64,000 nt of DNA. Origin: Patescibacteria group bacterium. GTDB taxonomy: Bacteria > Patescibacteriota > UBA1384 > UBA12157 > JAENIV01. The DNA is taken from assembly GCA_049515915.1 (NCBI GenBank), contig JBEKTP010000001.1, forward strand, positions 6,855 to 70,854, in the 5' to 3' direction. The translations under genes were made by a program, and so were the position numbers. Positions 1,741-17,065 of this stretch are shown piece after piece (position 1 is the first letter of the stretch; each line of letters starts with the position of its first letter). The notes under the pieces were generated by a model. The model was not told where the DNA came from and searched no databases. It worked only from the letters and a program-made list of their open reading frames with translations.

Positions 1741-2421
1741 TTAAAAGGGTGTTTCATTGTCTGGACTTTTGTAGCCGTGAGTTATTTGGTCACCAACATG
1801 GCGGTATTTGCACCACTTGCAGTCTTCGGCTTCGGCTGGCAAGGGCCCAGATAAAAGATCATCAATAATTTTGGCGAACCTAAGAAAATGCGCCTCATCG
1901 CAAGGAATTTCCAGCCACTTGGGCGGAAAATCTATTTTAGCAATGCCATTCTTGAACTTCACCATGTCTGGATAAAAAATCAAAAGCCCAAGCTTGGTAA
2001 TTTTTAACGACTCGCCGCTACTCGGATTTTCGAGAGCAAATTTATAAGCGCCGAGCTGGGTTTTATACTTTTCGATTTTATCTTCGGCCGGCTGGCTGAT
2101 TTTTAAGTCAATTAAAGTGTGGGTACCATCGCTATTTTTGACCAATAAATCGTATTTTCCTTTGATGTAAACATTCGTTTCCGGCACCGGCATCGATTCG
2201 ACCCAGCCTTCTTGTTTGATAACTTCTCCCTCAGGTAGATCTTTGGAAATGGATTGTAAATTTCTCCCGACTAAATCTCCTTGGAGCCGACTGTTGATCG
2301 CCGCAAAAACTCCCGGCATCGGCATGCTAGGCTGATAGATTCCAGCTTTGACTTTTAAGCAATAGCAAAGCTTACATTCTTCGTAAAGGTAGGCGAAATC
2401 CGACGGTGACAGTTTATACAT
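1741..2421 (-). CDS. Cas4/RecB-like PD-(D/E)XK nuclease with Cys clusters
   Basis: 226 aa. The D..(I)DLK core and a QxxxY motif (TQLGAY) are present. Cys cluster CKLCYC lies at the N-terminus and C175 plus CKWC near the C-terminus, resembling the Fe-S staple of Cas4/AddB-type nucleases. Confidence 0.55.
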   Translation of the reverse strand: MYKLSPSDFAYLYEECKLCYCLKVKAGIYQPSMPMPGVFAAINSRLQGDLVGRNLQSISKDLPEGEVIKQEGWVESMPVPETNVYIKGKYDLLVKNSDGTHTLIDLKISQPAEDKIEKYKTQLGAYKFALENPSSGESLKITKLGLLIFYPDMVKFKNGIAKIDFPPKWLEIPCDEAHFLRFAKIIDDLLSGPLPAEAEDCKWCKYRHVGDQITHGYKSPDNETPF

Positions 2422-2430
2422 AAAGTTATC

Positions 2431-3342
2431 CTATCTATCCGGTGCGTTATCGTAACCTTGCTTGATAACCGACATAATATAATCGGCATTGGCGTTGTTG
2501 ACAAAATCGTGATACCACAGAGCGGTCGTGCCCCATTTGTAATTCGCCGGAACTTTCTTAAATATCTTTTTGGGATCGTCAATTTTTGTCGATCGAACAT
2601 ACACTCTAATTTTTTCTTTTGACAAGTTCAACGAGCAAAAATTATGATATTGAACTTTATAGCCAATATAATTTTTAACCGGTTTTGCCTGAATACGACT
2701 ATCCAGATTTATTATTCGCTCATGCATTTCCTCGAAAAGTGTTTTCACATTTCCACTGACGCGACTTAAGTGATCGGCAATCGTATATTCTTGAATCTCC
2801 CGACTAACTTCTTTGACTGGTTTAGTTTTTAAAATTGATGAAATCGAAATGTCCGATTTGGGAGTTTCAATTTGCTGAATTTGAAAAATATCATTTGACC
2901 AATCATACTTCCAAAGTTCAAAAGGAACACCTTTAAATCCCAAGGCGTTTGTTTGGTGAGTGTTAAAACTTCGAGCAATAAAAATTACCCGCGCTTGAGA
3001 CCAATCAATTTCTTTTTTTCCAATTTTACTTTCAAGAACAATTTGATAGTCACCTTTGTGGTTTAAGAGCCAGCTTAAGTAAGCCATGCCTTGATCAATG
3101 ACGCTTTCATGAGAATCTTTTTTATATTCTATAAGCACGGGGCCTTTTGTTTCTGAATCGTAGGCAATCGTATCAATCGAAAGTCCCTGACCTCCGAATT
3201 CAGTTCTTAGAAATTCTAAACCAAAAATCTCTTTGAGATTATTGTCAACTAATGTCTGCAACTCAAGTTCACTTTTAAAACTTTCTGACTTAAGGGCCTT
3301 GAACTTGTTATTTTCAATTTTAAATATCGGCATAATACCCAA
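2431..3342 (-). CDS. RecB-family PD-(D/E)XK nuclease domain protein with C-terminal unknown domain
   Basis: 303 aa. The N-terminal IDTIAYD...LIEYKK (D-E-K) is followed by a QGMAY (QxxxY) motif. The C-terminal half is uncharacterised. Confidence 0.5.
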   Translation of the reverse strand: MGIMPIFKIENNKFKALKSESFKSELELQTLVDNNLKEIFGLEFLRTEFGGQGLSIDTIAYDSETKGPVLIEYKKDSHESVIDQGMAYLSWLLNHKGDYQIVLESKIGKKEIDWSQARVIFIARSFNTHQTNALGFKGVPFELWKYDWSNDIFQIQQIETPKSDISISSILKTKPVKEVSREIQEYTIADHLSRVSGNVKTLFEEMHERIINLDSRIQAKPVKNYIGYKVQYHNFCSLNLSKEKIRVYVRSTKIDDPKKIFKKVPANYKWGTTALWYHDFVNNANADYIMSVIKQGYDNAPDR

Positions 3343-3385
3343 ATTATATTACTTTAGGACTTTTTAATCCAGAAACCTCTAGTTT

Positions 3386-3529
3386 TTATTTCTTCTTTGG
3401 TTTCTTTCTTCTTCCCGTTACTAAAGTTCGTGCATATCCTGGTTCTTTTTTCTCTGGCGTATGTGGATTTTGAAGGCCTTTCCCGGCTTTACTTAGCTGA
3501 GCTTTTGTTGGTTTTTTATTTTTTGCCAT
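3386..3529 (-). CDS. small very basic protein (47 aa)
   Basis: It is absent from the ORF track because it is under 60 aa. MAKNKKPTKAQLSKAGKGLQNPHTPEKKEPGYARTLVTGRRKKPKKK is preceded by an AAAGGTGGTGA RBS 7 nt upstream. Confidence 0.35.
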   Translation of the reverse strand: MAKNKKPTKAQLSKAGKGLQNPHTPEKKEPGYARTLVTGRRKKPKKK

Positions 3530-3618
3530 TATTACTCACCACCTTTCTCAATCACTTCTTCAACTTTTTTTTCGCTTCTGCTAAAAGCGCTTTGGATTTT
3601 TGGTGAGCAGTGTGGAAT

Positions 3619-3780
3619 TCAAAATTCCTCAATACCTTGGTACTCCAGTTTCTTTTTGTATTCCGGCATTGTGTCGCCATTTTCCAAGCAAACATCGAGC
3701 ATAAAGGTTTTTGGATTCGCCCAGCTTTCGACATCCACTCGCCCTTCACCGTATTTGCTTTTCACTAAAACACAAGTCAT
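3619..3780 (-). CDS. small hypothetical protein (53 aa)
   Basis: ATG at 3780 is preceded by a strong RBS (AAAAGGAGGTATAA). The track ORF 3552..3749 is in a different frame and is probably spurious. Confidence 0.4.
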   Translation of the reverse strand: MTCVLVKSKYGEGRVDVESWANPKTFMLDVCLENGDTMPEYKKKLEYQGIEEF

Positions 3781-3802
3781 TTATACCTCCTTTTAAAAAT
3801 AT

Positions 3803-3823
3803 TCAATCGACGATTTTTAGTTC
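3803..3823 (-). repeat. recurring intergenic motif (instance 4)
   Basis: The plus strand reads tcaatcgacgatttttagttc. It immediately follows the GNAT stop codon and lies about 20 nt upstream of the RBS of the 53-aa ORF. Confidence 0.5.
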
Positions 3824-4309
3824 TTATGTTAAATCTTTTTGCAATGTTACCAATTCTAATTCTTCATTCGTTTTTTTATTAATAACATTACTAATAACTT
3901 TTCTGCTTGTGATTTGGGTAAAACCGATTTTACGGTAAAATTTGCGTGTTCGTACATAAGGTTCATATTTAATTTTTTCAGATAATGTTTCAACTTTTAA
4001 TTTATTGATGTCTAATGTTATTAATATTTCTTCTAATTCGTGGACTAAAGCTTGACCAATGCCTTTTCTTTGATAGTCTGGTAAAACTCCCAACCAACTT
4101 ATAAACACTTCTCCCTCAAAAGAGCTATAGGTTAGAAAACCAACAATTTTTCCATCACATTCGGCTACATAGCCTTGATGAAAATTCAAATCATTCGGAA
4201 TTTCGAAAGTCAGCGCGTAATTATCAAACCAATCATGAAGATTTTTAGCAATCTTTATTATTTCCGGCCGATCTCGTTGTCCAAGTTTTCTAATTTTAAT
4301 ATTTTGCAT
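3824..4309 (-). CDS. GNAT family N-acetyltransferase
   Basis: 161 aa; the acetyl-CoA binding motif QRKGIGQALV is present. Confidence 0.8.
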   Translation of the reverse strand: MQNIKIRKLGQRDRPEIIKIAKNLHDWFDNYALTFEIPNDLNFHQGYVAECDGKIVGFLTYSSFEGEVFISWLGVLPDYQRKGIGQALVHELEEILITLDINKLKVETLSEKIKYEPYVRTRKFYRKIGFTQITSRKVISNVINKKTNEELELVTLQKDLT

Positions 4310-4321
4310 TTATTTAAATCC

Positions 4322-4339
4322 CTCGACGATTTTTGATTC
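4322..4339 (-). repeat. recurring intergenic motif (instance 5)
   Basis: The plus strand reads ctcgacgatttttgattc. It lies 12 nt upstream of the GNAT ATG, and the minus strand reads TCAAAAATCGTCGAGGGATTT. Confidence 0.5.
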
Positions 4340-4442
4340 ATATTAATTATACTCCAAAAACTATATAAACCTTTATTTTTTAAATAGATATAGTATAATA
4401 AACACGATTTGGATTCCAGCGTCAGAAGGAGGTGAACAAATC

Positions 4443-4763
4443 ATGGCCGATGAGAAGACCTACGCGCAAAGACTGGCTGAGACCCAAGCGATGTCCACCG
4501 AGGAGATTCACGAAGCCATCAGAGCGCGCGAGGCAGCTGGAAAACCCTGCGGCATACTCCACAGGGTATTAGCGGATCGTTCCGACGAGCGGGCCAAAAC
4601 GCTCGGTATCGATCCGCCCAGACCAGGAAGAAAGACGTATTCTGAACGGTACTCCGAGACCAGCTCCATGTCTACAAGCGAGATCAGAGCCAAGATCGCA
4701 GAACGCAGGGCTCAAGGCAAGGAGGTCGGTGTCCTCGAGCGCGTTCTTTCAGAACGTGAGTAG
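4443..4763 (+). CDS. high-GC hypothetical protein with internal tandem duplication
   Basis: 106 aa. Two ~45-aa repeats are present (MSTEEIHEAIRAREAAGKPCGILHRVLADR / MSTSEIRAKIAERRAQGKEVGVLERVLSER). GC is about 57% against about 35-40% flanks. It has a strong RBS (GAAGGAGGTGA) and its own terminator. Confidence 0.5.
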   Translation: MADEKTYAQRLAETQAMSTEEIHEAIRAREAAGKPCGILHRVLADRSDERAKTLGIDPPRPGRKTYSERYSETSSMSTSEIRAKIAERRAQGKEVGVLERVLSERE

Positions 4764-4790
4764 CCGCCCAGGCCAGTTGAACGATCGAAC

Positions 4791-4830
4791 GAAACCGCCT
4801 AGTAGCTTTAAAGCGAACGGCGGTTTTATT
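4791..4830. terminator. bidirectional rho-independent terminator
   Basis: Hairpin AAACCGCC...GGCGGTTT with a T-run on the plus strand and an A-run upstream. It sits between convergent genes (4443..4763 + and 4894..5421 -). Confidence 0.6.
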
Positions 4831-4853
4831 TAGATAGAATAACCCAGAATTTC

Positions 4854-4873
4854 CCTCGGTGATTTTTAGTTCG
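4854..4873 (-). repeat. recurring intergenic motif (instance 6)
   Basis: The plus strand reads cctcggtgatttttagttcg. The minus strand reads TTGACT-N14-TAAAAATCACCGAGGGAAATT, about 20 nt downstream of the last gene of the R-M operon. Confidence 0.5.
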
Positions 4874-4893
4874 TGCTTTTTAAGTCAAGATAC

Positions 4894-5421
4894 CTAACTC
4901 TTTTTCTGGTTTTCTTTTGAATAGTACCAGAGAGCCTTGTCTAATGTTCGCAACGATACTTGATATTTTTCTGATAGTTTTCTTAATTCTTCAGTATATT
5001 TTTCCCAAAATCCAAAATCATAGCTTTTGGGCTGTTGCCATCCTAATGACCAAATAGCTCTGAAATCTAATATTGGATATTTATTTGGATATGCAAAATG
5101 TAAAATTACAGATGCAACCGGCCACGATGCACCTTTAATCAATAATAATGATCCAATGCTCGCTCTTTCATTTTTTGTGGATAATGCGAAGCTAGTTATT
5201 TCTCTAATAAACTCGTCGTCATTATTTTCATAATGTTTCTTGGGACGTTTTGACTTCCAAAGCCCGAGTATTACAAAATGCCTTTTATCCAAGTATTTAT
5301 TTGATAAAAACCAGTTTTTTAATTCCTTTTCATATTTTTCGTCGTCCGTTGCCCGAAAAATTGAATCGTATTTATTGCTATATTCTATTATTTTTTCTCT
5401 TGATAGTTTCATTTCTTTCAA
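4894..5421 (-). CDS. hypothetical protein (175 aa), last gene of the R-M operon
   Basis: Long ORF with a 6-nt gap to the upstream glycosylase-like gene and no recognisable motif. Confidence 0.45.
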   Translation of the reverse strand: MKEMKLSREKIIEYSNKYDSIFRATDDEKYEKELKNWFLSNKYLDKRHFVILGLWKSKRPKKHYENNDDEFIREITSFALSTKNERASIGSLLLIKGASWPVASVILHFAYPNKYPILDFRAIWSLGWQQPKSYDFGFWEKYTEELRKLSEKYQVSLRTLDKALWYYSKENQKKS

Positions 5422-5427
5422 TAATTT

Positions 5428-6204
5428 TTATTTCTCGCTTATTATCTTCGGGCACAATGAATTCAAATAACACTTTTGACAATCTGGATTTTTTGGTCGG
5501 CACCAGTTGTGCCCGATTTCCCAACAAGACAAATCAAAAATTCCAGGATAATCCGGATGAAGTTCGCGGGCAGCATATACCAATTCTTCAGAATTTTCTT
5601 TTTTTGTAAAACCAATCCGCTTAAATACCCGTCTCAAATGAACATCTGGCGAGACATCAATACAAATTTTATCTTTTACTTCAATCTTGAAATCTCTAAC
5701 AAGGATATTAGCGGCCATTGTAGAAATTTTAATCCCTACACCCCTAAATTCTTGAAACCTTTTAACTAGCAAGGCACTACTTGGTTTTCCCAACCAAATA
5801 TTTGCCGCATTGCTTTTATATTTATTTTTTATGTCTTGCAAAGCATAAAAAAAATTCTCAGCCATATCAGTATTGAATCTATGAAGTTTCTTATTATTAA
5901 AAAGTTCAATATATTGTTCTTTGCTTAATTTTAATAATTCAGTTATTTCAAAAGTATTTAACTCTTGAGAGATTTTGTAGGGTATAACCCAAGCTCTTTC
6001 GGCGGGGATTTGCCGATCCATAACACAGGCAAGCACAAATGCGTGTGGATATTTATCCAGATTATTTAATAATTTTTCGGCTTGGTTATTATTAGTAGTA
6101 AAGTTGACAATTTCTTTGGGTCTATCCAAAAGAGCCTGACCACGTTTTATCAGTAATTCGCTAATTTCCGCTTTTTTAAATTCATTATCCATCCAATTCT
6201 CCAT
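5428..6204 (-). CDS. endonuclease III-like HhH-GPD DNA glycosylase with [4Fe-4S] cluster loop
   Basis: 258 aa. An HhH motif with Lys (FRGVGIKISTMAANIL) is followed by IDVSPDVHLRRVFKRIGF, resembling Nth GVGRKTA...VDTHIFRV. The C-terminal C-x6-C-x2-C-x5-C (CRPKNPDCQKCYLNSLC) matches the EndoIII/MutY Fe-S loop. Confidence 0.65.
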   Translation of the reverse strand: MENWMDNEFKKAEISELLIKRGQALLDRPKEIVNFTTNNNQAEKLLNNLDKYPHAFVLACVMDRQIPAERAWVIPYKISQELNTFEITELLKLSKEQYIELFNNKKLHRFNTDMAENFFYALQDIKNKYKSNAANIWLGKPSSALLVKRFQEFRGVGIKISTMAANILVRDFKIEVKDKICIDVSPDVHLRRVFKRIGFTKKENSEELVYAARELHPDYPGIFDLSCWEIGHNWCRPKNPDCQKCYLNSLCPKIISEK

Positions 6205-6240
6205 TCATTGATTTGTGCAAAACCGAATCGAAAAGTTCTT

Positions 6241-7380
6241 TTATAATTCCCCTTCAAATGCGCTAGATAGGATGGATTGTTTGAGAGAGGAAAGATCGGC
6301 GAGCTGGTTTTGCTGAAGGGTTTTGAGTTTTTCGACTTTTTCTCGCAAATTATTGAGATAAGCAACAATCTTTTTTTGTTCCGAAATCGACGGAAGCGGG
6401 ATTCTTTCTTTTTTTAAAATTTTATAATGTCTGCTGTATCCCAAGCTTTCAAGATCTAAATCTTGAAGAGCATAATAAAAATATTTTGGATTGAATTCAT
6501 CTTTCGGATCTATGATTTTGGTGCCATCTGCCCCGATGGCGAAAACAAAATCAATATATTTAAAAATTCGAGTATGGTCTCCAAAAATAATTACCGGCAA
6601 TTCCCCTTGATACGTGGTATATTTATCATTTGTGTAACCGCCAATCAAAGACGCACCTTGATCAACAATTGGATAATTTCCTTCTCTATAGTAATTTGTC
6701 TTAGCAATTCCTTTTATTTTTTTTGGTAACTTTTTAATACATTCGGAAAATTCTATCATTTTATTTTTTTTACTGATATTTTGTAAAACTTTTTTAAGAG
6801 ACGAGCAGAAAATCTGATTTGTTCCTACGAGAGATTTTTGGCGGAGGACGATGGCTTTGTCAATTTTTTCAAAATATTTCTCAATCTTCGCCACGATTTG
6901 TTTTTGGATTTGGAGAGGCGGGATAGGGATTTCGAGATTAGAATATTGTTGGGCATTTATATTGGGTTGTGTAACCTGATTTAGTGTCCTTGAAATAAAG
7001 TTTTTATAATAGGGGCTTAATGAATATAGAAAGAAAAATTTGGGAAGCACTTTATTTTTATCCAGCTTAAACCGAATTAAATAAGATGCGAACAATGCGG
7101 GTTTTGGCAAATCTGTTTTATTAACTAAATACATTCTGCCAACTGAGCCGCTTCGGGCAATTAAAATATCATCATTTTCCAAAGCATATTTTTTGAAAGT
7201 TACTTCATTAGTATCAATAAACTTAGGATTAGCAAGATTTAACATTCCTGAATCATTTATGTCCGTTATCCGAAGATATAAATATGGTTTTTCTTGTAAA
7301 CTTGCTTTAGCCGTAAAACCGTATTGTGGTTTTGTCTTTAATAATTCTCCTATTTTTTTTATCGGCCAGTTAGTTTTCAT
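6241..7380 (-). CDS. hsdS: Type I restriction-modification specificity subunit HsdS
   Basis: 379 aa with two target-recognition-domain halves and conserved LPLPPLQIQKQIVAKIE / IPLPSISEQKKIVAYL repeats. It overlaps the upstream ORF by 4 nt. Confidence 0.85.
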   Translation of the reverse strand: MKTNWPIKKIGELLKTKPQYGFTAKASLQEKPYLYLRITDINDSGMLNLANPKFIDTNEVTFKKYALENDDILIARSGSVGRMYLVNKTDLPKPALFASYLIRFKLDKNKVLPKFFFLYSLSPYYKNFISRTLNQVTQPNINAQQYSNLEIPIPPLQIQKQIVAKIEKYFEKIDKAIVLRQKSLVGTNQIFCSSLKKVLQNISKKNKMIEFSECIKKLPKKIKGIAKTNYYREGNYPIVDQGASLIGGYTNDKYTTYQGELPVIIFGDHTRIFKYIDFVFAIGADGTKIIDPKDEFNPKYFYYALQDLDLESLGYSRHYKILKKERIPLPSISEQKKIVAYLNNLREKVEKLKTLQQNQLADLSSLKQSILSSAFEGEL

Positions 7381-7976
7381 TTTGATTTCCTCATCAGACC
7401 ATTAATGATTTTCCGATCGAAATAAAAAAGGAGTAATCCCAATCTTTGTAAACAGTCAATGAAAACAAAATAAGTAAATTGCCCCATCGGCGTTCGCTGT
7501 AAATCCTGTAAAATCTTTCTTTTTCTCTCATCTATGTGAAAAAACTCAGCGTTAAACCATAAATCCACAATTTCTTCTGTTTTTAAATTTTGATTATTCA
7601 CCTTAAGTCTCATCCCACCGAGAGGGAAATTATCTTTTTTCTCTAATATTTTTCCCCAATTTTCGCGACACCCAACAAGTTCTTTGATGATTTCTTCATT
7701 TTTACAATTTTGAAAAACAAAGTTACAAACTGAATAAAAATTAATCGATGAATTTTCTGCAATAAAATGCCGGAAATCTAAAATAAAGGCTTTTGTCGAT
7801 TGCTCATCCGGACCGGCCGATTTCACAGTTAGACCTTCATTTTCGCTATAGTTTAATTGCAAAGAAACATTTTTATAAAAATTCCTGTTGGAATGAAGTT
7901 TCTGAACTTTATCGTGAAAATCACTTAAAATCCTATCATATTTTTCGTTTACAATATCCTTATTATTAGTTTTCAT
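7377..7976 (-). CDS. hypothetical protein embedded in Type I R-M operon (199 aa)
   Basis: ATGA-type overlaps on both sides (with hsdS and with the 208-aa ORF). No known motif was recognised. Confidence 0.5.
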   Translation of the reverse strand: MKTNNKDIVNEKYDRILSDFHDKVQKLHSNRNFYKNVSLQLNYSENEGLTVKSAGPDEQSTKAFILDFRHFIAENSSINFYSVCNFVFQNCKNEEIIKELVGCRENWGKILEKKDNFPLGGMRLKVNNQNLKTEEIVDLWFNAEFFHIDERKRKILQDLQRTPMGQFTYFVFIDCLQRLGLLLFYFDRKIINGLMRKSK

Positions 7977-8599
7977 TTAACTAATCCAATAAACTTTAAA
8001 AATCTTATTCCTTTTTCAGTAACAATATAGCTGTCATCGATTTTTTGAATCATTATATTTTGTAATAGAACATTAAAAATCGATTCGCGTTCTAATTTAT
8101 CTGGGATTCTGGGCTCATAAATAATGTTGAACAGGTCTTTTGTGAATGACCCAAGATCGTGAGCCCACTTTAAAACAATTTTTGTGTTTGGCACAAAGAA
8201 TAGATTAAGATATAAAAATTCATACAATTCAGACCGTTGAACAAGATAATTGATGAAATTCTCTTTTTCCTGAATTTTTTTTTCCTTTTCTTCAGATTCA
8301 CCTGATATTTTCAAAAATTCTTGATCTAATAAGTTAATTTGTTCTTCTGTCAAAGTAATTCCTTTTTGTTCCAGTGAATTTTCAATCTTTCTGTCAATGT
8401 TTTCCGGTGGCCGCTGAGTCGCTTCCACAGGACCAACTCTAAGAGAGTAAATATTTTTCAGAAATTCTCGGATAGAATCACTGAATTTTAATATAAAAAT
8501 TAGTCCTAAAACGAAAATAGCAACAGGCCATGACAAGACAGCTTTTAAATATTCTGGGATGACTTTAATAATTTCTAATGTCATAAATTTCTTACTCAA
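7973..8599 (-). CDS. hypothetical membrane-anchored protein embedded in Type I R-M operon (208 aa)
   Basis: An N-terminal TM helix (WPVAIFVLGLIFILKF) is followed by a charged helical region. It is abutted to the neighbouring ORFs. Confidence 0.5.
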   Translation of the reverse strand: MSKKFMTLEIIKVIPEYLKAVLSWPVAIFVLGLIFILKFSDSIREFLKNIYSLRVGPVEATQRPPENIDRKIENSLEQKGITLTEEQINLLDQEFLKISGESEEKEKKIQEKENFINYLVQRSELYEFLYLNLFFVPNTKIVLKWAHDLGSFTKDLFNIIYEPRIPDKLERESIFNVLLQNIMIQKIDDSYIVTEKGIRFLKFIGLVK

Positions 8600-9511
8600 T
8601 TATTTTTTGGACGATAAATATTCCTCATGTTTATCAGCTATTTCGAAAAGCCATTGCACAATTTTATCAAGATAGCTTTTTATTTCTTTGGCCTGGCCTT
8701 CGCCAAATGCGATTATTGACAGATATTCTTCTAAGGTTTGTAAAACTAGTACGGATATTGTTTCAATCAGCTGTGGCCTGGGAGTGGCATATTCAAATTT
8801 TGGTAGCCGAAAACCCATCTTATCCTCGTCTCTTTCTAAGTGATCAAAGTCAAGCTCGTGCCAACTACCATGTACATAGTGAGAACTAATTTTGAATACA
8901 AGTTCATATATAGGGTAAAGACCGACATCTTCTGCCTTTCCAGATATTTCTAAGTGTTTCTTTTCGAGTCCCCATTTTGTTTTTTCGAGTTCTTTTTCCT
9001 CAAGATTATCGAGATGTGATCGTTTGTAAGTTTTATTTATACTTTCCAACATCCTTTTTTCAATGGGTAACTTATTATTCCGTTTTTGAATATTTCGAAG
9101 AACGATATTTTCTAGTTGTTTTTCGTAAGCTAACGAAGCCCTTTTATATTTTTTATAAATGTCCGTATCAAAGTATTTTATCAAATAATTTAAATTTATT
9201 ATTGTTTCAGCAAGTGACCTTAAAACAATAAAAGCAATTTCTGTCCTGCGCTCTACGATTAAAAAGGTAAAAGTGTCGTAAAGTTTGTAAATCCTGACGA
9301 GATGCCCTCGAAGAATATCTAATTTTTCTGGTTCAATTTCTTTTTGGGATACAATTCCCGCAATTAAAATGACTGCTTTACGCACATCATTTGCAACAGC
9401 CACAAGATCGACCATAAAATCATTGTTACTATTCCTTTCTTTAGTAATCAATGGCAATTTTAATTCTGGTAATTCTAGCTGGACAAATTCATCTTCCTTT
9501 GGCTCTTTCAT
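8600..9511 (-). CDS. hypothetical alpha-helical protein embedded in Type I R-M operon (303 aa)
   Basis: It overlaps the hsdM stop by 4 nt. An His-rich segment SSHYVHGSWHELDFDH is present. It is possibly a DUF5677-like family member, but that is unverified. Confidence 0.5.
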   Translation of the reverse strand: MKEPKEDEFVQLELPELKLPLITKERNSNNDFMVDLVAVANDVRKAVILIAGIVSQKEIEPEKLDILRGHLVRIYKLYDTFTFLIVERRTEIAFIVLRSLAETIINLNYLIKYFDTDIYKKYKRASLAYEKQLENIVLRNIQKRNNKLPIEKRMLESINKTYKRSHLDNLEEKELEKTKWGLEKKHLEISGKAEDVGLYPIYELVFKISSHYVHGSWHELDFDHLERDEDKMGFRLPKFEYATPRPQLIETISVLVLQTLEEYLSIIAFGEGQAKEIKSYLDKIVQWLFEIADKHEEYLSSKK

Positions 9512-10932
9512 AAATTTAGATTATTTAAAATTTTTTTAATTTCATCTTCTTTTTCTATTATATTTTTAATCAATTCCTCCGGTTTCTTAAGATCTAAATT
9601 CTCTTTCCCATTCGGATTCTTGGCAGAGAGGTCATAATTTTTGGAAATAATTCCTTCATTTTTAACCGCCCAAGAATTTTCAGATTTCGTTTTCTTCTGC
9701 CATTTTTCAAGAGCATCTGCCGTATGTTCGTCTAAAATTGGGTTTTTCTTGGTGTATTTGATACCGGCAGGCGGGTTCAGTTCGTAATACCAAATTTCTT
9801 CGGTTGGTTTGCCTTTTTCAAAAAATAAAAGATTGGTTTTGGGACCTTGGCCGGATGAAGAAACATTGGCAAAAACGCCGGGCGGAAGGCTGATGATGGT
9901 ATGTAAATTACAATTTTCTAAAAGCTCTTTTTTAATATTGACATAGGTTTTTCCAGTTCTAAAAAGCACGCCTTCAGGCAAAACAATTCCGGCTCGGCCG
10001 CCGGCTTTGAGCTTTTTCATCAAATAATACAAGGCTAAAAGTTCGGTATCCGAGGATTTAATCGGAAAACCTTGCAAAACTTCTTTGTCTTCAACGCCAC
10101 CAAAGGGCGGATTAGTCAAAATAATATGGTAGCGTTCGCTTTCCGGAATAGAAGTTAAATCCTCCGCAAAAGTATTAGTTTTGGTAATGTGGGGCGATTG
10201 GAGATTGTGTAAAAGCAGGTTCATAATGCCCAAAAGATAGGGCAGGGATTTGGCTTCATTGCCATAAAAAGTCTCATTTTGGAGAACGGAAAATTGTTTA
10301 GCCGTTAATTTAGGATTTTTTTCTTGGAGGTATTTGAAACTTTCAGCTAAAAATCCACCGGAGCCAGCAAAAGGATCAAAGATTTTCTCGCCGATTTGGG
10401 GATTAATAATTTTTACCATCAGCCGAATAATTGGTCGCGGAGTATAAAATTCACCGGAAGCGCCACCCTCTTGGCCCATCTTTAAAAGCAGTTCTTCGTA
10501 GACTTGGGAAATAATGTGAGTGTCCTCGGGCTTAGAAAAATCAAGTTCATCTAAAAGATTGACGACATCTTTGAAATTGAATGGCGAGTGCATATAGTTG
10601 CGCAGATCATCAAAAAGTGAGGCAATAATGTTTTTTAATGGGGTACCGCGAAGATTTCTTAAATACGGAAACAATTTAATATTTACAAACTCTGATTGTT
10701 CTTTTGCTTCCAGCTTGCTCCAAGCAGACCATTGATATTTTTTTTCGATAACTGGCTGGTATCTTTCCCCAAAAACTTGCGCCCCCAGTCGGCTTTTATG
10801 CTCAATCTGTTCAAAAAGTTTTAAAAATAACATCCAAGAAACTTGTTCGATGTACTGCAAAAGATAGAGTTTGTCACGGCGCATAATATCGCAGGCTGAC
10901 CAGATTTTATTTGAGAGGGTTTGTCTATCCAT
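9508..10932 (-). CDS. hsdM: Type I restriction-modification DNA methyltransferase subunit HsdM (N6-adenine)
   Basis: 474 aa with an HsdM N-terminal domain, the catalytic NPPFG motif (LTNPPFGG) and an AdoMet motif (FDPFAGSGGFL). Confidence 0.9.
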   Translation of the reverse strand: MDRQTLSNKIWSACDIMRRDKLYLLQYIEQVSWMLFLKLFEQIEHKSRLGAQVFGERYQPVIEKKYQWSAWSKLEAKEQSEFVNIKLFPYLRNLRGTPLKNIIASLFDDLRNYMHSPFNFKDVVNLLDELDFSKPEDTHIISQVYEELLLKMGQEGGASGEFYTPRPIIRLMVKIINPQIGEKIFDPFAGSGGFLAESFKYLQEKNPKLTAKQFSVLQNETFYGNEAKSLPYLLGIMNLLLHNLQSPHITKTNTFAEDLTSIPESERYHIILTNPPFGGVEDKEVLQGFPIKSSDTELLALYYLMKKLKAGGRAGIVLPEGVLFRTGKTYVNIKKELLENCNLHTIISLPPGVFANVSSSGQGPKTNLLFFEKGKPTEEIWYYELNPPAGIKYTKKNPILDEHTADALEKWQKKTKSENSWAVKNEGIISKNYDLSAKNPNGKENLDLKKPEELIKNIIEKEDEIKKILNNLNL

Positions 10933-13443
10933 TTAGACTCTTTCCTTTTGATAAAGATATTTTTGTAATTTTTGAATCGCAGACCTGGCTTGTTGGGGCC
11001 CGCCGAGGGAGACAATAATTTTTTCAATCCCGATTTCTTGAAATTTTGGCAAATTGAAAACTTCTTTTCGGGATATGTCTTCGATGCCGCCAATGCGGTA
11101 TTGATCAAGTAGGGCCAAAATAATCGGTTGAGCTTCTCTGCCAAGCGATGATAAAAATTCCTGTTTTCTAATTTCGATTGCCTGGGCCCGTTCATCGCGA
11201 GAAATAATCGGCGCGTCAAAAGCAACATGAGCTAAGACATCAAAAAAGTCAGCGTCTTCGCGATCAATCAGCTTAGCTAGGGCTTCAGGCGAAACGCTTT
11301 GATCTTTTAAATTCGAAAGAAAAGTTTTTCTCTTTTCTTCATCAATCCAGATTTTTTGCAAGTCATCCAAAGTTAGAGCCAGTTTGGCGACTTCTTCTTT
11401 GGAATATTCTTTGTATTCCGCACTTTTTAAGTGATTGCCGCCGACATCAAAAGTAAGATCGGCAGTGGAATAAATGTAGACGTCAACGCCGCCAAGAGTG
11501 ATTTTGTGAGGAGTTTTTCTTTCTTTTTTAAGCTCATAGATTTCTGGTTGGGGTTCAGGGGTGGGAGTGATTCGAAGTTCTCGGCGAACAAAACCGTTGG
11601 CGGAAATTTGCAGGGTAACTTTAATTCTGGGAAGTTTGTCAAAGGCAAAAATTCCGAGTTCATTGGTGGTTGTTTGTAAGTGCTCGTGCGCTTTGGTCAT
11701 CACGGTTACTTTGGCGCCAATAATTGGCGTTTCGGTTTTGGAAATGACAATTTTTCCTTCTAAAAAGCTATCATTAGGACCAATTTCTTCGTCTTCCGCT
11801 TCCTCTTTTTCCTCGGGTGTTAAAACAGAAAATAGTCTGGTGGCATTGACATAATCAATGATGCGAAAATAATATTTACTAGTGGCGGCATCAATGCGAC
11901 TACCACGACCAATAATTTGGTTGAAAAAAACCACTGACGAGATTGGCCGAAGTAAAACAATATTTTTTACCGAAGGCATATCAATGCCCGTGGATAAAAG
12001 ATCAACGGTGGTGGCGATAACCGGTGTTTTCTTTTCCGAATCTTTAAAAGCTTGGGCCAATTCGTGAGCGCCGCCTTCTTCGGAGACAATCGTGACCGCG
12101 TAGTTGGCCGCGCCTTCGGAGGAAAAATGATTTTGTAATTCTTTAGTCATGGCCCGGGCGTGGTCATTATTAACACAAAAAACAATCGTTTTTTCGTAGG
12201 TGCCAAATTTTTTAAGAAGACCGGCGAGATGTTCTGCGATTTTTTTCGTTAGGTTAGGAATGGCGACTCTACGTTCAAACTCACCGGCAGTGTAAAAGGC
12301 TTTGATTTCGTCATCAAATTCTTCGGGATAAAAAACTTCGGCTCCCTGCAATCTTTGTTCTTCAACATCCACGCCGCCTTCTTTATGAAGGTTGGTCAAA
12401 ATTCTCTGGATCATATAATTCGCGAGAAAGCCGTCTTTGATGCCTTGGCGAAGATTATATTCATAAACAGGATTGCCGAAATATTTATAAGTATTAATAT
12501 TATCATCACGCTTTGGAGTAGCGGTCATGCCGAAGTGAATAGCGCCGGAAAAATGTTTTAAAATGTCATACCAAAGATTCCAGCCCGAGCGATGACACTC
12601 ATCAATGATAACCATGTCGAAAAAGTTTTTGGGATAAGTTTCAAAAAGCCGCTTACCATTCTTTTGAGAATAAAGAGTTTGGTAGGTAGTAAAATAAATA
12701 TCTCGCACTTGAGGCGCTTTGCCTTCAATTATCTTTTCGCGGGCGTCTTTAAGAGGACCAAACTCCAATTCATAAGCCTGATCGCGGATGAGCCGGCGGT
12801 CGGCAACAAAAAGAACACGTTTGATATACCCGGATTGGTAGAGTTTCCAGACGGTTTGAAAAGCGACTTTTGTTTTTCCCGAACCTGTCGCCATAGAGAC
12901 CAAAATCCTCTTTTGCTTTTTGACGATGGCTTCGATAACCTTTTGAATAGCTAAAAGTTGATAATAACGAGGATTTTTGCCAAAGGGGGTAATATAGAGC
13001 GGGTATTCAAGCGGATTTTTCTCAAGTTTTTTGGCCAAAACTTTACTGTAACTTTTTAAACGGGCGTAAAGTTCTTCGGGTTTCGGGAATTGTTTGATTG
13101 TTTTTTGAGTATTAGTGATAAAATCAAACTCTTCGATGGCATGGCCATTAGTAGAATAAGCAAAAGAAAGTTCAAGTTTCTCCGCGTAGTCTTTGGCTTG
13201 TTGCATGCCATCCATTGAAGTGTGGTTTTCGTCTTTGGCTTCGACAACCGCGATCGGAAAAGCGTTATTGTGAAATAAAAGATAATCGGCAATCTTATTT
13301 TTTTCTCTTTCAACCCGATCGCCTAAAATATTAACTTTGCCGGCGGTGATTTGAAATTCCCTTTGAGTGTCTTCGTCTTTCCAGCCGGAATCTTTTAATT
13401 GAGGATCAATGAGTTTTGATCTTGTATCGGATTCGTTGAGCAT
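10933..13443 (-). CDS. hsdR: Type I restriction enzyme R subunit HsdR with inserted beta-sandwich domain
   Basis: 836 aa. SF2 helicase motifs are present (MATGSGKT Walker A, DECHR). The C-terminal EcoEI_R_C-like domain is present. An inserted transthyretin/carboxypeptidase-regulatory-like segment (~residues 560-640) is seen. Confidence 0.9.
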   Translation of the reverse strand: MLNESDTRSKLIDPQLKDSGWKDEDTQREFQITAGKVNILGDRVEREKNKIADYLLFHNNAFPIAVVEAKDENHTSMDGMQQAKDYAEKLELSFAYSTNGHAIEEFDFITNTQKTIKQFPKPEELYARLKSYSKVLAKKLEKNPLEYPLYITPFGKNPRYYQLLAIQKVIEAIVKKQKRILVSMATGSGKTKVAFQTVWKLYQSGYIKRVLFVADRRLIRDQAYELEFGPLKDAREKIIEGKAPQVRDIYFTTYQTLYSQKNGKRLFETYPKNFFDMVIIDECHRSGWNLWYDILKHFSGAIHFGMTATPKRDDNINTYKYFGNPVYEYNLRQGIKDGFLANYMIQRILTNLHKEGGVDVEEQRLQGAEVFYPEEFDDEIKAFYTAGEFERRVAIPNLTKKIAEHLAGLLKKFGTYEKTIVFCVNNDHARAMTKELQNHFSSEGAANYAVTIVSEEGGAHELAQAFKDSEKKTPVIATTVDLLSTGIDMPSVKNIVLLRPISSVVFFNQIIGRGSRIDAATSKYYFRIIDYVNATRLFSVLTPEEKEEAEDEEIGPNDSFLEGKIVISKTETPIIGAKVTVMTKAHEHLQTTTNELGIFAFDKLPRIKVTLQISANGFVRRELRITPTPEPQPEIYELKKERKTPHKITLGGVDVYIYSTADLTFDVGGNHLKSAEYKEYSKEEVAKLALTLDDLQKIWIDEEKRKTFLSNLKDQSVSPEALAKLIDREDADFFDVLAHVAFDAPIISRDERAQAIEIRKQEFLSSLGREAQPIILALLDQYRIGGIEDISRKEVFNLPKFQEIGIEKIIVSLGGPQQARSAIQKLQKYLYQKERV

Positions 13444-13535
13444 ATTAAAACAGCCCCTTTCTTATCTCAATTCTACCCCAGTTAATTAATAAAGTCCAGA
13501 GAATTAACGGGGCAAGCTCCAGTAATAGGAAGATA

Positions 13536-14237
13536 TCAATCTTTCATTCTGAGATCGGTGAAGAGGAAGCCGGAGCGGAGGACGGTTTTGCCGACGCGGA
13601 TATCGAGCGGGCGGCGAAAGCCCGGGGCATCGAAAACAAAAGTGTGGAATTCGCCGTTTTCGGCACACGGATCAACGCCTTTTGGCAAAGATTTTAGAAA
13701 ATCCAAATCAAAACTTGCGCCCGCCAGTTTCGGCGGCATTTTTTTAGGATCAAGACAAACCACCTTGGCTTTGAGTCCGCCGTCAATCATTTCGTGGGCG
13801 AGTTTATTCGTGTCCTTTTTCCAAAGCGGAAAAAGCGGCGTTATGCCGGCGGGAAGGAGTTTTTCTTCGCGGTAAGCGCGCACATCTTCCAAAAACAAAT
13901 CGCCGAAAATAATTTTTTCGACGCCACAGCTTTTTGCCTCAAGCATCGCCCGGTGCATTTTTTCTTCGTAAGTATAATTTGCGCAAGCTTTCGGAATGAG
14001 AACTTTGTGTAGCGGGAGACCCAAAGCTTCAGCCTGGGCTGCCAATAAACTTTCGCGAACGCCGTGCATCGAAACCCGCCGGTAACCTTCGGTGATGGTC
14101 GTCATGATTCCGGTAACTTCAATCTCGCCGCTCGCTCTGGCAATTTTTAGCGCCCAAATGCTGTCCTTGCCGGAACTTGAGGCGAGCCACGCCTTGGTTT
14201 TCTTTGGCATGGCAATATCGTATCTCCAATCGTTCAT
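13536..14237 (-). CDS. PP-loop ATP pyrophosphatase, diphthine-ammonia ligase (Dph6)-like / MJ0570 family
   Basis: The PP-loop SSGKDS is present. The track start at 14339 would overlap the NUDIX gene, so the start is probably ATG 14237 (or 14210). Confidence 0.6.
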   Translation of the reverse strand: MNDWRYDIAMPKKTKAWLASSSGKDSIWALKIARASGEIEVTGIMTTITEGYRRVSMHGVRESLLAAQAEALGLPLHKVLIPKACANYTYEEKMHRAMLEAKSCGVEKIIFGDLFLEDVRAYREEKLLPAGITPLFPLWKKDTNKLAHEMIDGGLKAKVVCLDPKKMPPKLAGASFDLDFLKSLPKGVDPCAENGEFHTFVFDAPGFRRPLDIRVGKTVLRSGFLFTDLRMKD

Positions 14238-14254
14238 TTTTGTAAACAACAGGT

Positions 14255-14680
14255 CTATTTGAGATCTTGGATAAGACGATACAACTTCGGATGTAAAGAG
14301 GTCGTAAAATATGTCTTTAGTTCTTCGGGTTTGACCCACTTGAGTTCTTTAAATTTTTCCCCGGCTTTAACTTTCCCGCCAACAATTTCCGCCGTATAAT
14401 AAATTGATAAAAATTGGCGGTTTTCGGGATAGGTTTTAGCAAAAATTACATCTTTGATTTTAACGTCGAGATTGGTTTTCTTTTTGACTTCCGCACTTAA
14501 ATATTTTTCGAGATCATCGCCGTACTTCGGACGGCCACCAGGAAAAGACCAAGTCAGGTTTTTTAAATAGGGATCGTTTTCACGCCGGCCAATTAAAATT
14601 TTGCCGTCTTTTTTAATGACCGCCAGCAAGTTAATCAAAAACACGCCACGATCAAACTCTTGCCAATTTATTTTATCCAT
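14255..14680 (-). CDS. NUDIX hydrolase
   Basis: 141 aa with a Nudix-box-like GGRPKYGDDLEKYLSAEVKKKTNL segment. Confidence 0.65.
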   Translation of the reverse strand: MDKINWQEFDRGVFLINLLAVIKKDGKILIGRRENDPYLKNLTWSFPGGRPKYGDDLEKYLSAEVKKKTNLDVKIKDVIFAKTYPENRQFLSIYYTAEIVGGKVKAGEKFKELKWVKPEELKTYFTTSLHPKLYRLIQDLK

Positions 14681-14806
14681 AATTAAGTTTATATTACTCT
14701 AACTACAAATCAAAATCAAGATAGCGTCCGATGAGCGGTTTGACATTAACCTGTTTTATTATTACTATTAGAATAGACTTAATTACTAAGTGAGGGTTAT
14801 TTATTA

Positions 14807-17065
14807 ATGGCTAGCGAAATTAAGTTTGCGAAAATTACAAACTCAGGGAAACTCCAAGACCGGTTTTTGACGTGTCAATATGCTCAGTCGGAGGATCTTT
14901 CCCGATCAGGCATGGGGGAAATTTTTTCCATTGTGGAAATCTTGTCCCCTTGGTTTCCGACCGCTCAAATCGGCCAGTTAATCATCAATAATTTTAACAA
15001 GCATTACTATCAGGGTGGCAGCACCTCCGACCTGGTTAACTTTGAAGAATCGCTCAAAGGCGTCAATGAAAGTTTGGCTTTAGCGACCCAAGACGGGGAA
15101 ACGGACTGGATCGGTAAACTCAATGCTATTTTAGCCGTCGTTGTCGGCAGCAGTCTGCACATCGCCCCGACCGGCAAAATTGATGCTTACATTTTCCGCG
15201 ACGGAAAAGTCAATCAGTTAACCGAAGGGATGGCCGGGACGGTCGAAGTTCATCCGCTCAAAACTTTTTCCAATGTCATTTCGGGGGAATTAAAACCTCA
15301 CGATAAGGTACTCCTCACCAGCAGCGATCTTTTAAATTATCTTTCCTTAGAATCGATTCAGCAGCTCGTCGCCTTCAATAATCCGTCGGTCGCCGCCTCG
15401 CAAATCGCCAAATTGCTCCGAAAAGCGCGCGGCCGGAACGTCAACCTTGTCATTATCGGTCTTTATTCCAAAGACGAAATCTCGGCCGAACCGGCTACCG
15501 GCGAATTAGAAACAACCTATTATCTAGATAAATCGAGCGATTCGATTTTTCATCGGCTCAAAAATTTATGGCACAATATTTTGGCCCCGATTCTAAAAAT
15601 GACCGGTTCCTCTTTAGCAAAATTAACGACCAAATCTTTTAACGACGCTTCAACTAAATTCAAGAATTTAAGAGAAAAAAAACCAGCCGAAGCAAATGAG
15701 GTCAAAAGTCAAGCTTTACCTCCCTCAACCACCCCCAGCGCCCCCAGCCCGCCTGCCGAGCCGAAAGAAGATCACTTTCATCGCGAGTTTTTAAAAGATA
15801 CCCCGCGCGATGATACCCTTCTTAAAGATGAGCAGATTAACTTCTCGCCGGAATACATTCACTATTATAACGAAAACAAAAAGCCGAAAGAAAGTTATCT
15901 TAGCAAGTTATTCCCGAAAATTTTAGGGGCGATGGCTCGATTCTATCGTTTCGTGATCGCCTTAGCCCAAGATCGGAATCGCCGAAAATATCTCTACATC
16001 GCCGGCGCGGTGGTGCTCATTCTCATCATCGCCTTATTTACGCTCTTTCACGGGAAGGGCACGAAAGTCGGCAACATCCAGGCCCAAAACATTTTAGATC
16101 AGGCCCTTTCTGCCGAAAAAGACGGTAAAAATTCCCTGGCTAACGGCAATCAAGACCAAGCCAAAACTCAGTTTTCTGATGCGATCAGTAAAGCTCAAAG
16201 CATCTTAGGTAACACCTTTGTCGCCAAAGACGCCAATCAAGTTATAACCGATTCCTATAGCCAACTCGATAAGCTCACGGCGACAACCCGCTTTACGAGC
16301 TTAAACGCCCTCTCGACCAGCCCCACCGAGACCAATAATTTCTACGTTTTAAACGGGGAAATCTACTTTATTGGCCCAACGACCATCTATCAAGGCAGTG
16401 TGCTCGGCGGTACACCCGAAAAAGTCGCCGCTTTGCCCAGCGGCAAGGGCAGCATTATCGCCTCCACTCAAGCCAGTCAAATTCTTTACCTTTACACTAA
16501 TAACCAATATATGTTCAGTTTTGATGCCACCAATAACCAGCTCAATCAAATCTTGGTCAGTGGCGGCAAATGGGAAACCGCCAATGCGCTTTCGTATTAC
16601 GTGGGCAGTCTCTATCTCCTTGACGGCGTCCTGGGGCAGATTTATAAGCACACCTCCACTCAAAATACCTTTGCCGCCGGGCAAGCCTATCTGACGAGTA
16701 ACACCTCCACCGTCAAGCAAAGTCTTTCGATGGCCATTGACGGCTCGATCTATGTTTTAAAAAGCACCGGCGACGTAATCGAGTTCCAGCATTCTAAGCT
16801 GCAGGACTTTAAATTAACTGGTCTCCCGACCCCCGCCGATCAACTGGCTAAACCGATTAAAATCTATACCGATTCCGACACCCCCGCTCTTTATATCTTA
16901 GATAACTCCCAGAAAAGAATTGTCGAGTTTGATAAAAACGGCAACTTTATCCATCAATATGCTCTACCAGAAAGATTTAACGATATCAAAGACTTTGACA
17001 TTTCGATTAAATCCCGTAAAATTTGGGTCTTGCAAAAAAACAGCGTCTACGAACTAAATATATGA
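14807..17065 (+). CDS. transmembrane protein with cytoplasmic PP2C-like (degenerate) domain, Pro-rich linker and extracellular beta-propeller-like repeats
   Basis: 752 aa. The N-terminal domain resembles the PP2C fold but has a degenerate GDSR motif (AVVVGSSLHIAPTGKIDAYIFRDGKVNQLTEG). A TM helix at ~400 is followed by six or more repeats of hydrophobic-strand motifs (IYFIGP, YMFSFD, LYLLDG, IYVLKS, LYILDN, IWVLQK). Confidence 0.5.
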   Translation: MASEIKFAKITNSGKLQDRFLTCQYAQSEDLSRSGMGEIFSIVEILSPWFPTAQIGQLIINNFNKHYYQGGSTSDLVNFEESLKGVNESLALATQDGETDWIGKLNAILAVVVGSSLHIAPTGKIDAYIFRDGKVNQLTEGMAGTVEVHPLKTFSNVISGELKPHDKVLLTSSDLLNYLSLESIQQLVAFNNPSVAASQIAKLLRKARGRNVNLVIIGLYSKDEISAEPATGELETTYYLDKSSDSIFHRLKNLWHNILAPILKMTGSSLAKLTTKSFNDASTKFKNLREKKPAEANEVKSQALPPSTTPSAPSPPAEPKEDHFHREFLKDTPRDDTLLKDEQINFSPEYIHYYNENKKPKESYLSKLFPKILGAMARFYRFVIALAQDRNRRKYLYIAGAVVLILIIALFTLFHGKGTKVGNIQAQNILDQALSAEKDGKNSLANGNQDQAKTQFSDAISKAQSILGNTFVAKDANQVITDSYSQLDKLTATTRFTSLNALSTSPTETNNFYVLNGEIYFIGPTTIYQGSVLGGTPEKVAALPSGKGSIIASTQASQILYLYTNNQYMFSFDATNNQLNQILVSGGKWETANALSYYVGSLYLLDGVLGQIYKHTSTQNTFAAGQAYLTSNTSTVKQSLSMAIDGSIYVLKSTGDVIEFQHSKLQDFKLTGLPTPADQLAKPIKIYTDSDTPALYILDNSQKRIVEFDKNGNFIHQYALPERFNDIKDFDISIKSRKIWVLQKNSVYELNI

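Follow-up and report, generated by a model that had tools for sequence, protein, structure and literature searches.

Three unrelated accessory genes stacked between hsdM and hsdS in a Type I restriction-modification operon of a Patescibacteria genome

We analysed a stretch of 64,000 nucleotides (nt) from a Patescibacteria group bacterium (GenBank assembly GCA_049515915.1, contig JBEKTP010000001.1, positions 6,855 to 70,854 of the forward strand; hereafter the window), in which a Type I restriction-modification (R-M) operon carries three additional genes, here termed A, B and C, between the methylase gene hsdM and the specificity gene hsdS. On balance we favor the view that A, B and C are three independent embedded accessory genes stacked in one gap, and not one three-component system, with a likely second-line role against phages. 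The recurrent embedding of A and C in R-M operons, taken together with the embedding logic discussed below, makes A and C, and less securely B, candidate anti-phage genes.

Organization of the hsd operon

The genes under study form an unbroken run on the minus strand in the order hsdR-hsdM-A-B-C-hsdS (lengths in amino acids, aa):

10933..13443, minus strand: hsdR, 836 aa; Pfam HSDR_N, ResIII, Helicase_C and EcoEI_R_C; PADLOC REase_I (8e-145)
9508..10932, minus strand: hsdM, 474 aa; Pfam HsdM_N and N6_Mtase (1e-60); PADLOC MTase_I (1.6e-144)
8600..9511, minus strand: gene A, 303 aa; DUF5677 family
7973..8599, minus strand: gene B, 208 aa from a TTG start or 203 aa from the ATG at 8584; N-terminal transmembrane helix
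7377..7976, minus strand: gene C, 199 aa; large unnamed single-domain family
6241..7380, minus strand: hsdS, 379 aa, two target-recognition domains; Pfam Methylase_S twice; PADLOC Specificity_I (6.8e-58)

All three Type I subunits are thus encoded together, HsdR with an HSDR_N and a superfamily 2 helicase domain, HsdM, and HsdS with both target-recognition domains, and their very strong Pfam and PADLOC scores indicate that the R-M system looks intact. A first-pass annotation of this DNA had described the three inner open reading frames (ORFs) as embedded between hsdM and hsdS and tightly coupled to the operon, which direct reading of the ORFs and junction sequences bore out. Four-nucleotide ATGA overlaps are found at the hsdM/A, B/C and C/hsdS junctions. 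The same annotation had extended overlap or direct abutment to every junction; this holds for the A/B junction only if B is read from TTG, which directly abuts the TAA of A, and a 15-nt gap separates the two genes if B starts at the ATG at 8584, the start placed by other gene callers. Given the overlap of stop and start codons, translation of the inserted genes is likely to be coupled to that of HsdM and HsdS. A consensus scan for promoter- and terminator-like sites across positions 3300-14900 returned counts matching those of shuffled sequence and is therefore uninformative; within 7377-9511 it gave only five weak promoter-like matches (9 of 12) and no other listed site, an outcome with which co-transcription would be compatible.

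The three inner ORFs are intact and are backed as real genes by conserved homologs (24 for A, five for B besides itself and 541 cluster representatives for C), which speaks against pseudogenised remnants. A 100% identical locus was recovered from many samples, in 23 contigs or more. These contigs represent the same genome and are thus not independent occurrences.

A, B and C occur separately in related loci

No pair among A, B and C co-occurs outside this genome in about 110 related loci (L-numbers below designate loci). Using tblastn and hidden Markov model (HMM) searches, we found relatives of A and B to be absent from 80 C loci, relatives of B and C from the A loci, and relatives of A and C from the B loci. 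The hsdM-hsdS gap is filled elsewhere by A accompanied by an OLD-family nuclease gene (L112-115) or by C (L029 and L033), in each case without the other two genes. Related operons differ in what fills this slot, which may contain a single passenger or several, among them OLD nuclease, RhuM and unnamed small ORFs; Fic and Abi_alpha genes are found close by in other C loci, either next to C or 3' of hsdS.

The initial proposal had been that a membrane anchor and two cytosolic partners form one sensor/effector module. Such a lineage-specific three-component module, with B as membrane sensor and A and C as cytosolic partners, would agree with the contiguity, common orientation, overlaps and similar low GC content of the three genes and with an arrangement unchanged in the 23 or more contigs. 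However, these contigs are one genome, no other locus retrieved contains any two of the three genes, either A or C can fill the slot elsewhere without the other two, and the recurrent partner of A is not B but a different gene, X, described below. The proposal did not survive these comparisons, and we regard a single module as very improbable.

Gene A belongs to DUF5677 and recurs with R-M operons

The suggestion that the 303-aa protein might be DUF5677-like proved correct: A matches DUF5677 (PF18928) at E=8e-22 and 78.5 bits against a cut-off of 27.1, over model positions 3-165 of 166. All 24 homologs of A carry the same domain, with identities of 28-63% (fifteen of them at 54-63%). Nine polar residues are invariant in the alignment (R73, K76, R89, E91, R98, N106, E130, E151 and R153), which also displays a conserved His-rich motif, SSHxVHGxWHxL. 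A is all-helical, with a core that may be HEPN-like; its counterparts would then include the MNT-HEPN toxins, Abi HEPN proteins and the nuclease domain of PrrC/RloC. Its sole defence match, in the PADLOC library, is the Aditi protein DitA (E=1.1e-6, 25.8 bits, profile positions 248-420 of 486), and from this alignment DitA itself seems to carry a DUF5677-like domain. Sequence and profile searches of the PDB gave no match below E=0.01 for A, B or C. A phage origin was considered and rejected: in IMG/VR, a pattern scan found one distant relative of A and no relative of B or C. A was not found in plasmid records.

We examined about 25 loci from the contigs of A homologs, in which the R-M-linked close homologs show 55-63% identity. 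At least six kinds of R-M-type operon have a relative of A within them or directly behind them, and these cases include three hsdM-hsdS gaps of Type I operons:

L001-L004: EcoRI_methylase, GmrSD_N/HNH, then A
L015-L022: Type IIG enzyme (Eco57I/N6_Mtase/TaqI_C), then A and X
L019: ResIII, HI_1054, then A
L112-L115: hsdM, OLD-family nuclease, A, hsdS, with A overlapping hsdS
L109/L110: A, X, Y, hsdS
L023: SNF2/NOV_C helicase, A (a 37% relative), DUF1156 methyltransferase, with overlapping genes

A thus recurs with R-M systems, as the annotation had proposed to check. The layout of L023 resembles that of the helicase-methylase-ATPase (Hma) systems of Payne et al., a putative assignment made by analogy. 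In the A loci L006 and L024-L026 no R-M link was seen.

Gene X encodes a 172-aa protein (beginning MRIAWLVQWGCH) and is situated 3' of the DUF5677 gene in four different contexts (L109 1311-1829; L110 988-1563; L015 3573-3863 and 4969-5193; L019 4515-4793; L111 542-1064). It matched no Pfam family, is absent from the window and is unrelated to B. X is split by a DDE_3 transposase gene in L015-18 and broken into two ORFs in L111. A and X may constitute a two-gene module. The ORFs found 3' of A in L015 and L109 (X and Y) were considered as divergent versions of B or C and rejected by blastp, hmmsearch and hhalign.

DUF5677 has been found enriched beside serine recombinases in defence islands (PMC12632615, preprint). 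The DUF5677 literature searched contained no mention of the recurrent R-M embedding of the subfamily of A or of partner X, and DUF5677 is absent from the supplements of Payne et al. (10.1101/2024.01.29.577857). The domain is not confined to R-M contexts, as indicated by a 646-aa protein of a Candidatus Omnitrophota metagenome-assembled genome (L027, 5855-7795) in which DUF5677 forms the C-terminal part of a fusion with a family-2 glycosyltransferase; the gene of this fusion adjoins that of a polysaccharide deacetylase.

Gene C represents a large family recurrently located before hsdS

A word-indexed search gave a single homolog of C, which was consequently considered an orphan until an exhaustive HMMER scan overturned this view. 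Among 1.84 billion representatives of clusters at 50% identity, the C family comprises at least 541 clusters at a threshold of E<=1e-3, of which 109 reach E<=1e-10, and nearly all members are single-domain proteins of 180-210 aa. Conservation is complete at H147 and nearly so at R69 and N142, residues that fall in the motifs KAFLLDFRPF and DLWLNxEFFHxD. The family was matched by no Pfam, NCBIfam, PADLOC or PHROG model, and a scan of 67 of its members against Pfam and PADLOC gave nothing apart from single matches at chance level. The structure predicted by AF2 for C has a mean predicted local distance difference test (pLDDT) score of 94.5. A remote homology between A and C was also considered and rejected (hhalign probability 0.4%).

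The genomic context of C was surveyed in 80 metagenomic loci fetched with an 11-sequence alignment, and Hsd-like genes were detected in these loci by iterated HMMs seeded with the Hsd proteins of the window. They were found in 16 of the 80 loci, and in 11 of the 26 that extend at least 2.5 kb on both sides of C. Among the non-redundant well-flanked loci, nine of 20 have C near R-M genes (Hsd or Eco57I-type), so that the check for recurrence at R-M operons was positive for C as well as for A. The arrangements were as follows:

L029, L033: hsdM-C-hsdS-...-hsdR; an Abi_alpha gene lies 3' of hsdS in L033
L063: hsdM-121aa-C-hsdS
L038/39: hsdM-RhuM-245aa-C-hsdS
L042: hsdM, four small ORFs, then C-hsdS
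L031: EcoRI_methylase-GmrSD/HNH-Mrr operon with C at its end, the same operon kind as that of A in L001-4
L076: N6_N4 methylase-Mrr fusion, then C
L064, L093, L103: C near Eco57I-type methylases
L046: C adjoins a TIR effector-domain protein
L047: C adjoins a Fic protein

In five Type I operons besides that of the window, C directly precedes hsdS, and in all five the two called ORFs overlap (by 4 nt in L033, 11 nt in L038, 11 nt in L063 and 14 nt in L042). In L029 and L033, where C is the sole gene between hsdM and hsdS, it is also coupled to hsdM, through a 4-nt overlap and a 1-nt gap. This constant position raises the alternative that the R-M machinery itself includes C, and perhaps A, as an accessory component, that is a fourth subunit, an assembly factor or a regulator produced in step with HsdM and HsdS and acting, for example, on the balance between methylase and nuclease or in restriction alleviation. 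The want of a recognisable toxin or nuclease domain in the C family points in the same direction. However, members of the family also occupy the 3' end of non-Type I R-M operons devoid of HsdS (L031, L076 and L093), others occur in loci without any R-M genes, and C does not contain the helix-turn-helix domain of R-M controller proteins. Furthermore, most Type I systems, such as the EcoKI-type enzymes, work without any C-like gene. A structural or regulatory part of the R-M machinery is thus a rather unlikely identity for C.

One additional relative of C (24.7% identity) was found on plasmid pHRM2a (L116, NC_012109.1, positions 6309-6953), where RefSeq annotates it as 'hypothetical protein'. 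It sits in a run of short same-strand genes including lnu(F) and genes for a TIR-domain protein and a HigB toxin, and this run looks like a cassette array.

Gene B is a rare membrane-anchored protein

The B family is restricted to six proteins in the 5.8 billion searched, the protein of the window included. B had been annotated as membrane-anchored, in agreement with a 19-residue stretch (aa 21-39) of mean Kyte-Doolittle hydropathy 2.31 that is conserved among its homologs. These proteins share the N-terminal hydrophobic helix, a linker of charged or coiled character and, towards the C-terminus, a conserved domain (aa ~120-208 in B) with the motifs YLNLxxVPxTK and GxxFLxxIG. Within this domain, aa 175-203 gave sub-threshold matches to HTH_45 (E=0.017) and Sso10a (E=0.049), which provide a lead towards a possible winged-helix fold for the C-terminus. 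B had no significant Pfam, NCBIfam or PHROGs match and no PADLOC match at E<=1, and neither B nor C matched the known abortive infection (Abi) families in Pfam, PADLOC or PHROG.

A second case of embedding in a Type I operon involves a homolog with 48% identity to B, which in L010 stands between an AAA_21 ATPase gene and a 128-aa ORF that is followed by hsdS; another homolog, with 32% identity, lies two genes from a serine resolvase gene (L009). The neighbours of B in L009, L010 and L014 were considered as divergent versions of A or C and rejected by blastp, hmmsearch and hhalign; they are also mutually unrelated.

Comparison with known embedded defence genes

That Type I R-M loci are sites of inserted defence genes, as stated in the first-pass annotation, is a described phenomenon. 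Type I R-M, BREX, DISARM and Hma systems all host embedded defence genes, a pattern termed 'guilt-by-embedding', and for Type I R-M operons more than half of the embedded genes have yet to be assigned (Payne et al. 2024, 10.1101/2024.01.29.577857). In the cases tested, embedding in Type I R-M predicts defence function (PMC11411939; 10.1101/2024.01.29.577857). PrrC in EcoprrI is the classical guardian example, and TgvAB is embedded in Vibrio cholerae VPI-2 (PMC11411939). The locus of the window shares with PrrC, TgvAB and the HEC/PDC genes its general layout, in which uncharacterised genes are nested among hsd genes, co-oriented and tightly spaced, with variable cargo. Nevertheless, A, B and C match no PDC or HEC model in PADLOC v2; unlike PrrC and RloC they contain no P-loop or ABC-type ATPase and measure 199-303 aa as compared to about 400-800 aa; and unlike TgvAB they contain no DUF262 or DUF1524 domain. 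In contrast to other embedded cases, three unrelated passengers are stacked here in a single gap.

The closest known system for A is Aditi, which was reported to be a two-gene anti-phage system with proteins devoid of recognisable domains (Millman et al. 2022) and was left unclassified in a 2024 survey; no Aditi mechanism was found in the literature searched. A is remotely similar to the C-terminal half of DitA. However, at 303 aa it does not possess the N-terminal half of that protein, and no DitB partner is adjacent, B and C having no PADLOC match at E<=1. A PADLOC run on the locus accordingly confirmed the Type I R-M system and the DitA match and left B and C unmatched. A also covers nearly the full DUF5677 model, a family to which no function is assigned. 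The annotation had found no family that it could name with confidence for the three proteins and had called the arrangement undescribed. The former claim holds for B and C, which match no model, and fails for A, a DUF5677 protein; none of the three has a characterised function. As for the latter, embedding in Type I R-M operons is known, and what is new in the libraries searched is the B and C families themselves. The locus thus contains new families within a known kind of arrangement, for which the logic of an embedded back-up defence is already established.

Possible roles of A, B and C

In the role that we favor, A, B and C would act against phages as a second line, guarding the R-M system or serving as its back-up, much like PrrC, TgvAB and the embedded candidates that Payne et al. 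reported. In this scheme A and C could be latent effectors acting through their conserved His/Arg/Asn sites, possibly on nucleic acid: these conserved residues, together with the putative HEPN-like core of A, suggest nucleic-acid-directed effectors. A bolder version of this proposal, to which we attach a low probability, would make the C family a widespread R-M companion present in fixed proportion with HsdM and HsdS, docked on the methylase core and acting as a latent guardian that fires when a phage disables R-M, according to a PrrC-like logic with a new fold and an R/N/H site, and A would then be a second, independent guardian. If true, A as a DitA-like guardian would offer a first handle on the mechanism of Aditi.

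Several points weigh against this interpretation. For A, B and C alike, a defence function, an effector chemistry and a contact with the R-M complex are what we infer, and their expression from the R-M transcript, probable for each of them, is deduced from gene spacing only. The canonical HEPN motif Rx4-6H is not conserved in the alignment of A, nor is it present in C, which has N142-x4-H147 and a sole conserved Arg at position 69; the fold search with the predicted structure of C returned generic helical bundles only and no specific fold match. About half of the C-family loci, mostly those of distant members, are not beside recognisable R-M genes. In one of these (L096, 4210-9569) a distant member of the family has a Ro60/TROVE-vWA gene on one side and, on the other, a gene for an RtcB RNA ligase that contains an intein, an RNA-repair type neighbourhood that hints at an RNA-related role for the C family. 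The homologs of B are too few and their contigs too short for any statistic (four B loci). Finally, a cooperation of A, B and C specific to this lineage may be compatible with the absence of such pairs elsewhere.

In Enterococcus, the one DUF5677 ORF that was assayed did not figure among the genes with defence activity (PMC12632615), an observation that also bears on the alternative that A, B and C are hitchhikers devoid of anti-phage benefit, either selfish genes of the addiction or toxin type or decaying cargo in a recombination-prone slot beside the exchangeable hsdS. The base composition of the operon is relevant in this respect. A, B, C, hsdS and the two following genes D and E have a GC content of 0.30-0.34 and a third-codon-position GC content (GC3) of 0.26-0.29, as opposed to 0.38-0.41 and 0.37-0.38 for hsdR and hsdM, the average GC content of the window being 0.42. 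This compositional step inside the operon would fit an exchangeable segment made of cargo and specificity gene, and suggests that the specificity gene may have come from elsewhere with its cargo. A horizontal origin of the AT-rich block would agree with hitchhiking, as would the transposase insertion and the split X gene in the same slot of related loci (L015-18 and L111). However, the three ORFs are intact, with conservation at the protein level and invariant polar residues, the C family is large and has kept its full length, no mobility domain is found in A, B or C, and recurrence with many unrelated R-M types and with other defence genes is what one expects of genes that serve in defence. 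We therefore consider hitchhiking quite improbable and retain the favored interpretation of independent embedded genes with a likely second-line anti-phage role.

The locus adds two concrete families, the C family and the A subfamily of DUF5677, to the unassigned R-M-embedded genes, and does so in a genome of the Patescibacteria (Candidate Phyla Radiation, CPR), a group of whose defence repertoire little is known. The most useful lead comes from the C family, which is large, has no model, is confidently predicted in structure and is constantly placed before hsdS. The A subfamily combines an association with at least six kinds of R-M-type operon and a remote link to DitA. Both A and C are short single genes with few invariant polar residues and are therefore easy to test by cloning and point mutation.

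Other features of the operon and its surroundings

HsdR carries at aa 562-640 a CarboxypepD_reg-like beta-sandwich insertion between the helicase core and EcoEI_R_C (Pfam E=2.5e-9, 2.7e-8), a feature that to our knowledge is not familiar from model Type I enzymes. On the other side of the operon, genes D and E follow hsdS in the same orientation and within the same AT-rich block, after gaps of 36 nt and 6 nt respectively, and may be part of the same operon as the hsd genes:

5428..6204, minus strand: gene D, 258 aa; HhH-GPD/endonuclease III-like
4894..5421, minus strand: gene E, 175 aa; phrog_24538 match (2e-6)

The C-terminus of D displays a Cys cluster typical of a 4Fe-4S loop and matches TIGR03252 at E=8.6e-16, under the cut-off of that model. 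E weakly resembles N-glycosylase/DNA lyase and has relatives with 26% identity in Haloarcula pleomorphic viruses 3 and 4. About 1.5 kb beyond E, positions 1741-3342 of the window encode on the minus strand a DUF5655 protein of about 300 aa and a PDDEXK_1 nuclease-family protein, both called from the Pfam marks of an identical contig (L007, 11252-12612), and these two genes may represent another defence-type pair nearby.

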